A stretch of 64,000 bases of DNA, taken from positions 10,938 to 74,937 of the forward strand of contig JAVZTI010000005.1 of assembly GCA_038879595.1 (NCBI GenBank). The letters run 5' to 3'. Source of the stretch: Desulfurococcaceae archaeon (lineage in GTDB: Archaea > Thermoproteota > Thermoprotei_A > Sulfolobales > Desulfurococcaceae). Below the pieces are notes generated by a model. The model made no database searches. It worked only from the letters and a program-made list of their open reading frames with translations, and had not been told where the DNA came from. The first letter of the stretch is position 1, and each line of letters starts with the position of its first letter. Below, in pieces: positions 1,539 through 32,231 of the stretch. A program made the position numbers and the translations under genes.

Positions 1539-1875
1539 AGCTATTGCTAAGGCCTTCGTCTATAAATTCTTCATCCTTAAATAATGCTAATATTGGGTGA
1601 ATCATGAAGGGCTTAAACTCTCTGCTTACTTCAAAAACAAAAGATGCGTTTAGTGAAACGCACTTAGCGTGTATCAAGTACACGCCGCTGCTCTTAGCGA
1701 CTCCATCCACAATTACTTCCTCACAAGCTTCTTCAATAGCGCTCCAACATGAAATAGGGTCATCACTAACTATTACTTCCACTCCATCTAAGGTAGCCGA
1801 CGCAGTGCAAGCATCATTAATGAGCCTCACAAGCCTACTAGCTAAATTATATGAGTACTCTCTGCCCTCACCCAT
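1531..1875 (-). CDS. hypothetical protein
   Basis: 114-aa ORF with balanced, charged composition. Preferred over the Ser/Thr/Leu-rich antisense ORF 1604..1918. Confidence 0.4.
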   Translation of the reverse strand: MGEGREYSYNLASRLVRLINDACTASATLDGVEVIVSDDPISCWSAIEEACEEVIVDGVAKSSGVYLIHAKCVSLNASFVFEVSREFKPFMIHPILALFKDEEFIDEGLSNSFT

Positions 1876-1943
1876 TGATATAACCCTCTCTGCTAAAAGA
1901 ATAGTTACACAACTCTAGAGCTTTATTTAGAGGGGTCAATTGC

Positions 1944-2306
1944 TTGGCCATTCACTTATTTGAGTTGAAAAATAAAGTTGTAAGAAGCCCTACAAGCTCA
2001 GAGTTATGTGAAGCTGTTTATACGTTGACACAATTGCTTAACTTAGGGGAAGTAACTTCATACAGTGACTTAGCTAAACTGCTGGGAGTTCATCCAAGGA
2101 TTGTAGCCACATGTCTTAAACACAATTACCATGTAATAGCTATACCATGCCATAGGGTTGTTTACAAAAACCTAATGCTAGGTGGATATAGCCTTGGGAA
2201 AGCATTGAAAGAGAAGTTATTGAAGCTAGAGGGCGTCTCAATAACTAATGGAAGAGCGTCAAAGAACTCGTATAGGTGTCTAAGCAAAGAGCTTCTTGAC
2301 GACTAA
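1944..2306 (+). CDS. MGMT-family protein (O6-alkylguanine-DNA alkyltransferase DNA-binding/active-site domain only)
   Basis: Active-site motif IPCHRVV plus the preceding helix-turn-helix (YSDLAKLLGVHPRIVATCLK). At 120 aa it lacks the N-terminal domain. Confidence 0.75.
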   Translation: MAIHLFELKNKVVRSPTSSELCEAVYTLTQLLNLGEVTSYSDLAKLLGVHPRIVATCLKHNYHVIAIPCHRVVYKNLMLGGYSLGKALKEKLLKLEGVSITNGRASKNSYRCLSKELLDD

Positions 2307-26956: not shown

Positions 26957-27069
26957 TACATGCTAGCATCTTACCCTAAGGACAATTATATACTTTAGTG
27001 CTCTATGAATCCACATGCCTTCAGCTATGGAAACATTTGTTGCAACCAGATAGATTCATTTACTCTACA

Positions 27070-27292
27070 ACCATTGCATAAGCCGCTTCTCGGTGGATGG
27101 CTGTTCATTGGCTTTCACTTTCTTTCGTATCCAGCCTCCCAGCCGTCCACTTCTCAACGGCTTGTTCTTACCCAGCCCCGCCTGCGGGAGCGTGTCTCCA
27201 GCGGTTGCCCGTGGTTCATCCAGCTCCCTGCGGTGAAGCTGGGTGCACGAGGTGTCCCCCTCGCCATGCTCATCGAGTTCATCCCTACTCCA
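27070..27292 (-). ncRNA. candidate structured non-coding RNA (unclassified)
   Basis: Hand count gives 106/170 G+C (62%) for 27121-27290, against AT-rich flanks. Several nested helices, including a hairpin whose loop reads GCAA (GNRA) on the minus strand. The G+C-rich block starts about 26 nt from the palindromic TATA box at 27315-27320. ORFs here look non-protein-like. Strand and ends are uncertain. Confidence 0.3.
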
Positions 27293-27314
27293 ATATTGTC
27301 ATACATGTAAATAC

Positions 27315-27320
27315 TTATAA
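27315..27320. promoter_or_regulatory. palindromic TATA box (TTATAA), possible bidirectional promoter
   Basis: TTATAA lies about 26 nt from the minus-strand G+C island edge (about 27291) and about 33-38 nt upstream of the TTG start at 27353. Confidence 0.3.
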
Positions 27321-27352
27321 GCTTTTCTGCAGTATGTTGCAATGGTGGTGGT

Positions 27353-27499
27353 TTGCCAGAGGAGTATGTGTTCCACGTGAGGATCTCGAGGACAAGCCAC
27401 GGCTTGCTCTGCATCTACATACCCAAGCGTCTCAGCGAGAGAATGAAGCACCTGCACAGAAGAGAGGTTGTTGTGCGTGTCACAGTACCAGATGCATAG
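27353..27499 (+). CDS. 48-aa AbrB/SpoVT-like micro-protein (not in ORF track)
   Basis: TTG 27353 (GGTGGTGG just upstream) to TAG 27497-27499: MPEEYVFHVRISRTSHGLLCIYIPKRLSERMKHLHRREVVVRVTVPDA. The I-x-IPK...EV-V-V pattern is AbrB-like, and it is a paralogue of 212..355. Confidence 0.5.
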   Translation: MPEEYVFHVRISRTSHGLLCIYIPKRLSERMKHLHRREVVVRVTVPDA

Positions 27500-28586
27500 A
27501 GTCAGGGATGCGTCAAAGCTAGTAGAGTACGTAACGATAGTTGGGAGGCTTGAACCACTCACCGAAGAAGACTACGTGAAGCTTGTGAGACTAGCACACG
27601 AGTTCAGGAAAGCCGCAACCTACGCTACGAGAATGATTGCTAAGGGCATAGACCCAAATACCGTTCTCAGAGAACTGCGCTCAATGCTTAACAAAGCGTA
27701 CGGGGATTCAGCGTTCAAGCTTGCTAAAGCCATAGTGGAGAGTGCTAGATCAAACAACGGAAACCCGCTGAAGATAGAAATTAGGAGGCTCTTCATAGTA
27801 TCGGAGGGTGAAGCAGGCAGGCTAGGTAACAGAAACGTGAGGTTGGATGACTCCAGCACCGTGAGGATCAGGTATCCGTACGAAAGATCGTGGCTCAGTT
27901 TCAGAGCAAGATTCGGAGAAAACCATGTACCGCTCGTCAAGGAGCTATCAGAGCTTGCTAAATCGAGGAAGTGTAGCTACGGTGCGAAAATAGTTTTCAG
28001 GAAGGGTAGAGTTTACCTTCACTTATCTGTACCCGTAGAGCTCTACTTGAAGTACTTCGGGAGGGGCGAAGCCATAGGGAGCTTAATTGCAGGCTTCGAC
28101 CTGAACAGCGACAGGGTAAACATGGTGATAGTGGATAAGTACGGAAGAGTAGTGGATGTGAGAACAGCTTGGTTCCCCGAGGTAACATCCCCGGGTTACC
28201 CGGGGAGCAAAGCTATGGTTGTTAGGCTTCGAGCTCTAGCAGAGCTACTCAACTACGCATACCACCACGGTGTTGGTGTAGTCGTGTTCGAAGACCTCGA
28301 CAAGATCAAGCAGAGAAGGTTCACCAGTTCACCCACAGCCAACAGGAAGATAACCAGATTCGCAAAGAAACAACTACTAACTCACGCAGTAGTCATGGCT
28401 TTGAAGTACGGGTTGAAACCTGTTCTAGTCGATCCACGAGGAACCACGAGCTCACCCGTACACAGCACTGTGATGAAGAAGCATGGTTTAGATAGGCACA
28501 CAGCGTCAGCTTACCTAATAGCACTCAGATATCTTCAGGACGAAAAGACCGTGAACGGTCACAAAGCACATAAACAATACAAATGA
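27492..28586 (+). CDS. TnpB/OrfB-like RuvC-fold protein lacking the zinc-ribbon insert
   Basis: Motif order GFDLNSD ... VVFEDLD ... VDPRGTTSS ... GLDRHTASAYLIA matches the TnpB split RuvC layout. Only about 12 residues with no Cys pairs sit where CxxC..CxxC normally lies. The ATG at 27492 overlaps the micro-ORF stop (ATGCATAG). Confidence 0.65.
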   Translation: MHRVRDASKLVEYVTIVGRLEPLTEEDYVKLVRLAHEFRKAATYATRMIAKGIDPNTVLRELRSMLNKAYGDSAFKLAKAIVESARSNNGNPLKIEIRRLFIVSEGEAGRLGNRNVRLDDSSTVRIRYPYERSWLSFRARFGENHVPLVKELSELAKSRKCSYGAKIVFRKGRVYLHLSVPVELYLKYFGRGEAIGSLIAGFDLNSDRVNMVIVDKYGRVVDVRTAWFPEVTSPGYPGSKAMVVRLRALAELLNYAYHHGVGVVVFEDLDKIKQRRFTSSPTANRKITRFAKKQLLTHAVVMALKYGLKPVLVDPRGTTSSPVHSTVMKKHGLDRHTASAYLIALRYLQDEKTVNGHKAHKQYK

Positions 28587-28721
28587 ATATCAAAAAGAAA
28601 ACAGCCCATTCATAATTTCTTGACTCTATTAAGTGCATAATGGAGATCTAATAAAGCTGTGTAGGTAAGGTTTAAAAGTATTGCTCATTGATAGTTTTCT
28701 GGAGTACATGGGGTTGCATAA

Positions 28722-30896: not shown

Positions 30897-31089
30897 AGCA
30901 CTAGACAGGCTCTGCCCTTATGAGTCCCTAAGTCTCATTCACTAGACCGTCATTGCTATATCTTTAAGATTTTTAAAGCGTCTAAAATCAATATGTTATG
31001 TTAATTTGCCAATAGTATTTTGCTACAAGATCTTTTAACGCCTCGTGTAGCTGTTTCGGTTTTCATATCTGTTTATATTGATTGAAATA

Positions 31090-31096
31090 TTTATAA
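31090..31096 (+). promoter_or_regulatory. TATA box candidate (TTTATAA)
   Basis: Lies about 25 nt upstream of the abrupt start of the G+C-rich island at about 31116. Confidence 0.3.
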
Positions 31097-31108
31097 GAAC
31101 TCTATACA
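31094..31108 (+). repeat. direct repeat copy 1 (TAAGAACTCTATACA)
   Basis: 14/15 identical to 31334..31348. The pair brackets the G+C island. Confidence 0.5.
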
Positions 31109-31116
31109 GCGATATG

Positions 31117-31293
31117 CCTGGATGAGGGTTCGAGAGCCCATCGAGGCTCTCTCCGAGATACTCAAGATGTGGGGTGCCCGGAGTCGCCCTGAAAGCCCCT
31201 AAGGGTTATGCAAACCCAAGACTGATGCAGGGGAAAAGAGATGAAGCAATGAAGTCAACAGATATAAAACTACATAAGAGCTGAACCCCTTTT
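31117..31293 (+). ncRNA. candidate small structured RNA (unclassified)
   Basis: Hand count gives 73/130 G+C (56%) for 31111-31240 inside a very AT-rich ORF-free region. It has a perfect hairpin GAGAGCC-CATCGA-GGCTCTC (31132-31151) and ends in CCCC+TTTT (31286-31293). The 3' part has a C-box-like GAGATGA (31238-31244) and a D-box CTGA (31281-31284) bracketed by GGGG/CCCC. Confidence 0.25.
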
Positions 31294-31333
31294 AAATACC
31301 CCTATATTCTCTTCAAGATCTTTTCTGCCTCCT

Positions 31334-31348
31334 TAAGTACTCTATACA
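31334..31348 (+). repeat. direct repeat copy 2 (TAAGTACTCTATACA)
   Basis: 14/15 identical to 31094..31108. Confidence 0.5.
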
Positions 31349-32231
31349 TTTATGTGTCAAAGAATTCTTCAATGAACTTCCTTACTTCACTGCATTCTTT
31401 ATATTAATAACGTCTTATAAAATACCTTGAGCCTATGTATGCATCTTCAAGTATGTCTACAATGCACTACCTCTCATTTGCCAGTTATTTAAGGCACTGA
31501 TTCTCAGTGATCTCTATTAAGTCTCATAGAGAATGTAGTTTAGAGAAGTCGCTTACGGCTTTTAATATGTAGGCTTTTAAAACTGGCTAAACTGCTTGTT
31601 CAAGATGAAATGATGCAATATCGTATTCGCTAACTCTATAGAAGTGCTTGGCTCATTAATCATTTCCCTATAGAGCATGCTACTTGCAAAACACTGGCTT
31701 TAACGCATTAAGTCATGTGATGAATGCGCTGTGCAACTTAGTATATGCTATGCACTCCTATACAAGGTTCTCTACACAGATAGCCTATTTTTTCTCAATA
31801 TAGGAAAGCTTTTCTTCGCTTTAAATTCTCTAATTAATGATGTTTCTAAGCACCTATGACTTTACTTTGCTATTGATTCAACTGAACGCTAACGTCATGA
31901 AATATCTAATTATGTGGGAGTACTTTAGATCAGTGTTGATTGCTTTAGCAGTACTGTTTTCAGTAATTACAGTTAAAAACCCTATATAGGCTTTTATTCT
32001 CTAGCATAGTACTCAATGTAGGTCACTAGAAGGAGTTAGTGAAAACACTGTTTTAACCAACTATCATTGATGAATAATTCGTAAGATAACAAAATAAACC
32101 CGGAGAACTTATTAGGGATAGGGTTTTTAAAGGGGGGTGCAGAGGGAGTATGAGAGGGGGTAGCTCTGAAAACTAGGACGCTGGTAGTAATATCTCTACT
32201 AATAGTTATAGCTGTAGCGCTCATTTTCCTA

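Follow-up and report, generated by a model that had tools for sequence, protein, structure and literature searches.

The DNA analysed here (the window) is a stretch of 64,000 nt from a Desulfurococcaceae archaeon (assembly GCA_038879595.1, contig JAVZTI010000005.1, positions 10,938-74,937, forward strand), and our subject is a unit of about 1.5 kb within it, in which the gene of a 48-aa protein overlaps that of a TnpB-like RuvC nuclease. The pairing of such genes has been known since 2023. What looks new is that the pair lies on a 1.5-kb mobile element together with a conserved structured RNA gene on the opposite strand. An initial annotation of the window had singled out the gene pair and was largely right in what it observed; the structured RNA, upstream and on the other strand, is according to our sequence comparisons a third component that it had missed. 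Coordinates are those of the window, and L-numbers denote the related loci compared with it.

The gene pair

27353-27499, plus strand: gene of the small protein (48 aa), a putative AbrB/MazE-like DNA-binding protein and likely repressor
27477-28586, plus strand: gene of the TnpB-like RuvC nuclease (369 aa from GTG 27477), clade RIIIr-4, with no zinc finger

Both open reading frames (ORFs) stand as first described: the small one runs from TTG 27353 to TAG 27497-27499 and translates into the 48 aa quoted for it, and the long one ends at TGA 28584-28586 and holds the segments GFDLNSD, VVFEDLD, GTTSS and GLDRHTASAY. Their overlap is real, but it measures 23 nt (27477-27499) and not 8 nt, the start of the nuclease gene being GTG 27477. 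This GTG is kept at its position in 17 of 17 loci, with MSQYQ as the N-terminus, and yields 369 aa; L001 has ACG where the window has ATG 27492, which is thus not a conserved start. The NCBI copy of the large protein also has 369 aa, and the window protein is 100% identical to a 369-aa protein from a Desulfurococcaceae metagenome-assembled genome. As had been noted, the cassette is richer in G+C than its surroundings (0.47-0.585 over 27000-28550, against 0.33-0.43 in the flanks).

That the small ORF is a genuine gene follows from its codon-position bias, its in-frame excess of synonymous changes and its protein relatives. Over 17 loci its variable columns distribute as 16/12/37 by codon position, and the codon differences in frame comprise 2106 synonymous against 778 non-synonymous ones; in the two remaining frames the counts are 232/2704 and 239/2643. 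Twenty-five protein clusters are 77-89% identical to the 48-aa protein, and a profile search of 1.84 billion proteins returned 20 small relatives only. The proposed linkage of the small gene to such nucleases is borne out, a small overlapping gene always preceding the nuclease gene in the relatives. Its product changes between subclades: close relatives have the 48-aa protein, other subclades a ribbon-helix-helix (RHH) protein of ~50 aa, and L034 a MazE/AbrB protein.

According to its predicted structure, the large protein is a TnpB/Cas12-fold RuvC protein without zinc ribbon. The best Foldseek matches of its AlphaFold2 model (predicted local distance difference test, pLDDT, 87; predicted template modelling score, pTM, 0.80) in the Protein Data Bank (PDB) are Cas12k (7n3o, E 7e-10, template modelling score 0.58), Cas12f (9n9c, 8j12) and the ISFba1 TnpB (8iaz, E 4.5e-7), in agreement with the TnpB-like nature first proposed. 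The NCBIfam and TIGR models all scored below their cut-offs (NF040570 guided_TnpB, 30.6 bits with a cut-off of 100; TIGR01766, 26.1 with 32; TIGR01765, 36.4 with 47.25), a local copy of Pfam gave no hit, and phmmer against PDB sequences returned chance AAA-ATPase matches only. All of its 682 relatives carry the precomputed annotation PF27229 SSO2105_N, and a literature search for "SSO2105", the precomputed Pfam domain name, returned nothing. Relatives span Desulfurococcales, Thermoproteales, Thermococci and others.

Four residues, D203, E267, D334 and H336 (numbered from ATG 27492), are invariant in 24 aligned relatives. The Asp of GLDRH, initially read as the RuvC-III Asp, is thus indeed invariant (D334), but it lies two residues before His336, and it is this invariant His that takes the place of the canonical DRDxN Asp according to a motif alignment of DRDxN with DRHTA. 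The canonical D-E-D triad is therefore not present. The missing zinc ribbon was correctly recognised: the window segment from GTTSS to GLD contains no Cys, and CxxC occurs in 0 of the 24 aligned relatives, one of which has a single Cys.

The layout had been thought undescribed, but it is already on record. Altae-Tran et al. (2023, PNAS; PMC10691335) described a major TnpB clade, RIIIr-4, without the C4 zinc finger and with His at the RuvC-III Asp, and inside it an archaeal "RHH/MazE-TnpB" group in which tnpB follows a small AbrB/MazE or RHH gene. By its match to that description, the window pair is assigned to this group. The same authors took the group to be non-mobile, proposed it as a toxin-antitoxin pair whose guide RNA might be a long 3' untranslated region (UTR), and reported an AlphaFold co-fold of RHH with TnpB, with the small protein modelled as binding TnpB directly, together with a patchy distribution. 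As late as September 2026, the toxin-antitoxin idea still figures in a review as "proposed".

Borders, vacant site and copies of the element

28587-28604, plus strand: conserved tail ATATCAAAAAGAAAACAG after the stop codon, the other end of the element; homology between differing contexts ends here, and the empty-site comparison agrees
28605-28607, no strand assigned: right part of a split CCCC run whose left part is 27083-27084; GGG on the RNA strand, adjoining the far end; candidate target-adjacent motif (TAM)

Comparison with other loci identifies the unit as a mobile element. It extends over about 27084-28605, an insertion of ~1521 bp into a CCCC run with 0-1 bp duplicated, and loci in unrelated contexts share homology only from ~27083 (..CCGYTTCTC) to ~28607 (..AAAACAGCCC). 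The vacant site is found on six contigs (L041-L046) whose DUF2153 gene is 100% identical to that of the window. There, DUF2153 adjoins a 133-aa gene with no element between them, the intergenic region is 244 nt long, and the join is exact within the CCCC run. The vacant site reads CATAAGCCCCATTCATAA and the occupied one CATAAGCC/GCTTCTC......AAAACAG/CCCATTC, where slashes mark the borders; on the RNA strand the vacant site is 5'-..ATGAAT-GGGG-C-TTATGCAATGGTTG, and the occupied junction is ..GAGAAGCGGC-TTATGC...

A 99.1%-identical copy occupies a different site in L051 (..GAAACC/G...CAG/CCCTATATC) with the same R-CC/.../CCC-T arrangement, and in other loci C residues likewise flank both ends, the far end being flanked by CCC or CCCC. 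One hot-spring metagenome (3300025090) holds both the empty DUF2153 site (L041) and this near-identical copy elsewhere (L051), which indicates an insertion polymorphism at the population level. Across the element loci we counted 50 distinct flanks and no conserved neighbouring genes, and several diverged copies can occur in one genome (L016/L017, L020/L033). In L017, an ORF-less miniature of ~300 bp (1775-2074, plus strand) retains the tnpB-distal end (43 nt, 79% identity), the complete RNA scaffold (206 nt, 78%) and a remnant of the promoter. The miniature is inverted relative to a full copy 480 nt away, and their RNAs converge upon a gene of 139 aa.

These observations bear on the possibility, raised in the initial annotation, that the nuclease is domesticated. 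It would then be an immobile RNA-guided regulator or defence gene whose fixed guide controls or protects a host locus, with the small protein as co-regulator. Such a role would agree with the listing of the group among non-mobile, possibly exapted TnpBs (PMC10691335) and with the site that the window shares with L003. It is largely refuted, and in our view very improbable, given the empty alleles in near-identical strains, the 99% copy at another site and the 50 unrelated flanks without conserved neighbours; the miniature derivative contradicts it as well, and PADLOC gives no hits. PHROGs likewise yielded no meaningful hits, and no relatives were found in a viral contig collection.

Two other descriptions of the borders were rejected: a 3-bp target duplication (GCC), which L001 and L004 do not fit and in which the C count is off by one, and a 2-bp crossover of the serine-recombinase type, which suffers from the same misfit. 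The hairpin GACCG-TGAA-CGGTC is present at 28547-28560 as first reported, but it is conserved in neither L001 nor L002 and was rejected as a subterminal end hairpin. Terminal hairpins had otherwise been reported as lacking; a covarying stem-loop (27082-27103 with 27140-27161) was, however, found at the left end.

Further copies of the RNA scaffold, several of them in opposite orientation, were detected at L099:3742-3973, L100:1500-1684, L084:1736-1940, L077:2955-3159 and L106:1278-1500 and may be additional miniature elements or remnants. As a separate observation, the window and L003, which carry the element at the same site, are 99-100% identical in their host flanks and 95-100% in the RNA region, while in the body of tnpB (window 27500-28240) their DNA identity falls to 78-88%, a pattern suggestive of gene conversion between element copies or of mosaicism.

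A predicted structured RNA on the opposite strand

27082-27291, minus strand: RNA scaffold, candidate omega-RNA, read from ~27291 to 27082; the last 2-3 nt (27082-27084) are target-derived
27082-27161, minus strand: helix P1, a terminal stem-loop (5' arm 27161-27140, 3' arm 27103-27082) that closes the scaffold at the element end
27171-27243, minus strand: helix P2, a long hairpin whose apical extension (27198-27214) varies, with conserved GGGAGC...GCUCCCGYAG
27062-27081, minus strand: candidate guide segment of assumed length, host flank 3' of the scaffold (5'-UUAUGCAAUGGUUGUAGAGU as read on this strand)

The non-coding region between the left border and the small gene carries a conserved secondary structure. 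Positions 27082-27300, in which no ORF is conserved, fold well on either strand (z-scores of -6.4 and -5.8, the latter for the minus-strand scaffold). A covariance model made from ten loci places the RNA next to the small gene, on its upstream side, in nearly every relative, the RHH-type and the most divergent ones among them; among metagenomic loci with enough upstream sequence, 54 of 59 contain it. In a 35-sequence alignment (A6), compensatory change is seen in 41 of 48 pairs, and 90.5% of cells are paired, against 37-49% in slid controls. Both sides change in 16 of the 17 pairs of P1 (helices 7 and 8 of the alignment). In two pairs of P2 (helices 4-6), 25-30 sequences have U.G and Watson-Crick pairs occur as alternates, and this determines the RNA strand.

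We take the minus strand as the RNA strand because of the excess of G.U pairs, the strand of an Rfam match, the distance to the TATA box and the position of the guide in related systems. On the minus strand, G.U outnumbers A.C by 136 to 47 in an alignment that had been fitted to the minus-strand model, and G.U is the majority state at four covarying pairs. Matches to the full model of RF02814, all on the RNA-sense strand, score 16.6 (window 27171-27258), 28.9 (L006:2683-2745), 26.0 (L022:2696-2778) and 25.5 bits (L014:2681-2764), with a gathering threshold of 44 bits; this Rfam family may be a fragment of the present RNA from Sulfolobus. At gathering thresholds, Rfam returned only two tRNAs in the window and nothing significant in the cassette. 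The conserved RNA block starts ~26 nt from the centre of the TATA box. In TnpB and Cas12 systems the scaffold is followed by a 3' guide, and the TAM lies 5' of the target. Reading the RNA from the plus strand was disfavoured: the G.U/A.C counts oppose it, the element holds no promoter upstream of it, and the family rule of a 3' guide would not be kept. Minus-strand ORFs in the region (27154-27414; an 89-aa call in L002) were rejected as coding on account of the helix covariation and of an apical deletion of ~30 nt in one subgroup.

Across 50 flanks, conservation amounts to 1.0-1.9 bits over ...AACGG-Y at the end of the scaffold and to ~0.1 bit at the next base, a drop that falls exactly on the element boundary. 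A drop of this kind is the field's criterion for the border between scaffold and guide (PMC10278001, Methods), and the geometry is, as far as can be read from the alignments, that of an omega-RNA. The candidate guide sequence is unchanged in the empty-site alleles L041-L046. On the other side of the unit only ~18-21 conserved nt follow the nuclease gene, which leaves no room for a separate downstream RNA gene, and nothing comparable in conserved structure is seen at the 3' end of tnpB. We therefore regard the structured RNA as probably the guide RNA of the nuclease.

It could instead be argued that the structured region acts as DNA, that is, as a transposon end whose hairpins are recognised by a transposase in trans, as in IS200/IS605 elements, with the guide coming from elsewhere, for example from the 3' part of the tnpB mRNA. 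P1 indeed lies exactly at the element terminus and draws its last pairs from target-derived bases, insertion at a fixed short motif without target duplication is IS200/IS605-like, and covariation alone does not separate RNA from DNA helices. We still find this account quite improbable. With ~210 nt, three helices and long invariant single-stranded stretches, the region far exceeds known end hairpins, and the G.U majority at four covarying pairs, the placing of the conserved block at promoter distance from a TATA box and the recurrence of the sRNA-family matches on the RNA strand also speak against it. A guide from the tnpB mRNA would, moreover, have to come from a 3' end that lacks comparable conserved structure and whose one hairpin is not conserved.

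A putative shared promoter and repressor

27301-27334, no strand assigned: palindromic promoter/operator region of putative function, with the TATA box TTATAA (27315-27320) and A-rich arms

Between the RNA and the small gene lies a palindrome with the consensus TACAGAAAnnCTTATAAGCTTTTCTGTA in the relatives and an imperfect copy in the window. A-rich arms resembling the B recognition element (BRE) stand on both sides of its symmetric TATA box, and its position suits transcription starts near 27344 on the plus strand and near 27291, the beginning of the conserved RNA block, on the minus strand. This layout is conserved; the arms differ with the type of small protein, being GTTAGA...TCTAAC in L028 and ATATCTAGATAT in the RHH-type L025. 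This covariation with protein type suggests repression of both transcripts by the small protein in dimeric form. There is a precedent in the RHH protein Arc of bacterial IS605 elements, which represses the transposon promoter (Moon et al., 2026; bioRxiv 10.64898/2026.09.24.754181).

The AbrB fold initially proposed for the 48-aa protein received no statistically significant support from any of the tests run. The local copy of Pfam gave no hit, a PDB profile search nothing significant, and hhalign against the MazE-type protein of L034 a probability below 1%. Its AlphaFold2 model (pLDDT 77) has a beta-helix-beta layout, for which the best Foldseek match is a designed cradle-loop barrel at a non-significant E of 0.31. 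Indirect support comes from the distantly related locus L034, whose protein at the equivalent position matches PF04014 at E 2.2e-12 and is a genuine MazE/AbrB protein, and from a sub-threshold match to MazE (0.0011) among distant relatives of the 48-aa protein, which also match DUF1905 below threshold (0.0025). One protein from the 48-aa profile search, P0273 (96 aa), is a tandem duplication of the 48-aa domain in a single polypeptide, with a sub-threshold match to MazE_antitoxin (1.1e-3); such a duplication is what a dimeric functional unit would predict.

The same promoter and small protein can be read as the published toxin-antitoxin module. In that case, the guide-RNA-carrying TnpB would be a DNA-cutting toxin, the small AbrB or RHH protein a labile antitoxin that binds TnpB and blocks engagement of the guide-target duplex, and the pair would persist by addiction. 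The RHH-TnpB co-fold and the patchy distribution (PMC10691335) argue in this direction, as do a small first gene that overlaps the second, a partner whose fold swaps between AbrB-like and RHH in the manner of antitoxins, the palindromic operator at the promoter and the several diverged copies per genome. On the other hand, a precisely bounded insertion with empty-site alleles and 50 flanks is transposon behaviour, in a group that the paper scored as non-mobile. As the one conserved non-coding RNA is read outward into the flank, a carrier genome would contain no intact target to poison, and the miniature keeps the RNA and the ends and has neither "toxin" nor "antitoxin". Taken as the whole explanation, we judge the module rather unlikely. 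It does not exclude homing, and vice versa, as cutting of the empty site after loss of the element would itself be addiction-like; the initial ideas of a regulated nuclease and of addiction are compatible with the data.

Proposed mechanism

We posit that the unit is a self-regulated, RNA-guided homing transposon of hyperthermophilic archaea, and assign this reading a probability of about 0.6. It would consist of three conserved parts, namely the plus-strand operon, the minus-strand RNA gene of ~210 nt and the two short conserved ends. Operon and RNA gene would be driven from the same palindromic TATA/BRE element, with the RNA running outward through the element end into host DNA. This RNA would serve as the omega-RNA of the nuclease, its scaffold being encoded by the element and its 3' extension copying the flank (27081 downwards) as guide. 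In a chromosome without the element, a GGGG(Y) motif would stand directly 5' of the flank sequence, and the TnpB-RNA complex would cut this empty site and thereby promote re-copying of the element by recombination (homing or maintenance). Upon insertion, GGG would come to lie at the far end (28607-28605), G-G-Y would close P1, and the flank would follow as putative guide; with the motif split by 1.5 kb, the occupied site of the host would not be cut. This vacant-site geometry is the one by which IS200/IS605 TnpB recognises and cuts a vacant site. The small protein, as a dimer, would bind the palindrome over the shared TATA box and hold down both transcripts. The element encodes no transposase, and an agent of its transposition is presumed.

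Several points weigh against this proposal. The published analysis scored the group as non-mobile and has the small protein binding TnpB directly (PMC10691335). Overlapping genes with a palindromic operator would be just as well explained by a toxin-antitoxin module, and the AbrB fold of the 48-aa protein is statistically unsupported. The existence, ends and strand of the RNA are computational, and the alignment behind the G.U/A.C count was fitted to the minus-strand model. Nuclease activity with His at RuvC-III is predicted and unproven. The TAM reading rests on one empty site, one near-identical copy and flanking C residues, and the exact cut position is ambiguous by 1-2 nt. A weak search detected no transposase in the element, the window or the related loci: the gene tables of L001-L003 list no Y1 TnpA, and tblastn of the window and loci with an IS608 TnpA query (low sensitivity) found none. 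For RIIIr-4, one of five major TnpB clades, we know of no experimental characterisation, nor of an experiment on either the homing or the toxin-antitoxin reading.

Extended to the entire RHH/MazE-TnpB clade, the proposal would make its members active archaeal transposons whose omega-RNA is an independent gene, divergent from the operon at a shared palindromic promoter and under the control of their own mini-repressor, with a G-only target/TAM (GGGG-Y) and a zinc-finger-less nuclease with His in RuvC-III. To this generalisation we give even odds. If true, the clade would be the first among TnpB lineages to have its guide RNA in a separately promoted gene of antisense orientation, and it would supply a natural three-part, self-regulated RNA-guided system from hyperthermophiles.

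If the homing model is true, the uncoupling of a TnpB guide RNA from the tnpB mRNA, and its placing under a shared repressor, would represent a step towards the separate RNA genes of CRISPR-Cas12 loci, the published reading as a non-mobile toxin-antitoxin pair would need revision, and a zinc-finger-less nuclease with a His active site from very-high-temperature organisms would be open to testing as an editing tool. The locus supplies concrete reagents in the form of a thermostable 369-aa nuclease, an RNA of ~210 nt with a proposed 3' guide, a predicted TAM and a predicted operator. The empty-site sequence of sister strains would be the natural target, with 5'-GGGGC-TTATGCAATGGTTGTAGAG as candidate substrate and 5'-GAAATTATGAATGGGGCTTATGCAATGGTTGTAGAGTAAATG as the longer empty-site sequence. 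Should the model fail, the locus is still an ordinary member of a catalogued family.

A further conserved block in the window

Elsewhere in the window, positions 31040-31290 form a non-coding block that is conserved, rich in G+C and equipped with a TATA-like box of its own (ATTTATAAGAAC), in a stretch free of ORFs of at least 40 aa (30897-31730). The block is 82.7% identical to L051:1150-1409, the differences look compensatory, and Rfam gave no hit for it. It is possibly a further small mobile element or a structured RNA that has escaped annotation.

Comparison with known systems

The unit resembles the TnpB elements of the IS200/IS605 type (ISDra2, IS608 type, omega/reRNA) in its RuvC nuclease of the same fold, in the insertion without target duplication beside a fixed short motif, in the ORF-less miniatures and in the logic of empty-site cutting. 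In both, a structured RNA stops where the element ends and takes, here putatively, its 3' part from the flanking DNA, and terminal inverted repeats are lacking. The present RNA differs in being a separate gene on the opposite strand with its own start at the shared palindromic promoter, and not the 3' UTR or 3' end of tnpB. Further differences are that the weak search found no Y1 TnpA here, that the nuclease lacks the zinc finger and has DRH instead of DRD, that the target motif is G/C-only (GGGG), and that the window protein reaches just 30.6 of the 100 bits demanded by guided_TnpB.

Like the Arc-carrying IS605 elements with their very small dimeric DNA-binding protein, it is a TnpB-carrying element that encodes a very small protein, here a putative dimeric DNA-binding one, beside an intergenic and possibly bidirectional promoter. 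Those elements are bacterial, however, and carry TnpA and a canonical TnpB; Arc is an RHH protein, whereas the window protein is AbrB-like at best. Many of them have arc co-transcribed with tnpA and tnpB on the opposite strand, while the small gene lies here upstream of tnpB and overlaps it. IscB/IsrB systems likewise place the guide RNA gene upstream of the nuclease gene at the element end, but the IscB omega-RNA is transcribed in the same direction as the gene, with its guide 5', whereas the RNA described here is antisense and its guide would be 3'. Among RNA families, RF02814 (Sso133, Sulfolobus sRNA133) corresponds in that P2 and the 5' AUGAA motif match its full 73-nt model on the same strand at four loci. 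It differs in that these scores stay below the gathering threshold and in that the Rfam family consists of one hairpin only.

With the published RHH/MazE-TnpB group, finally, the unit has in common the archaeal host range, the compact protein without C4 zinc finger, the His at the position of the RuvC-III Asp, the conserved RuvC-I Asp and RuvC-II Glu, and the small AbrB/MazE-like or RHH gene immediately upstream. The group was published as non-mobile, whereas the present unit behaves as a transposon, and the possible guide named for it is a long 3' UTR, whereas the 3' tail here measures ~18-21 nt and the RNA lies upstream on the opposite strand. The mechanism proposed here thus differs from the published one in mobility, in the position of the RNA and in the role of the small protein.

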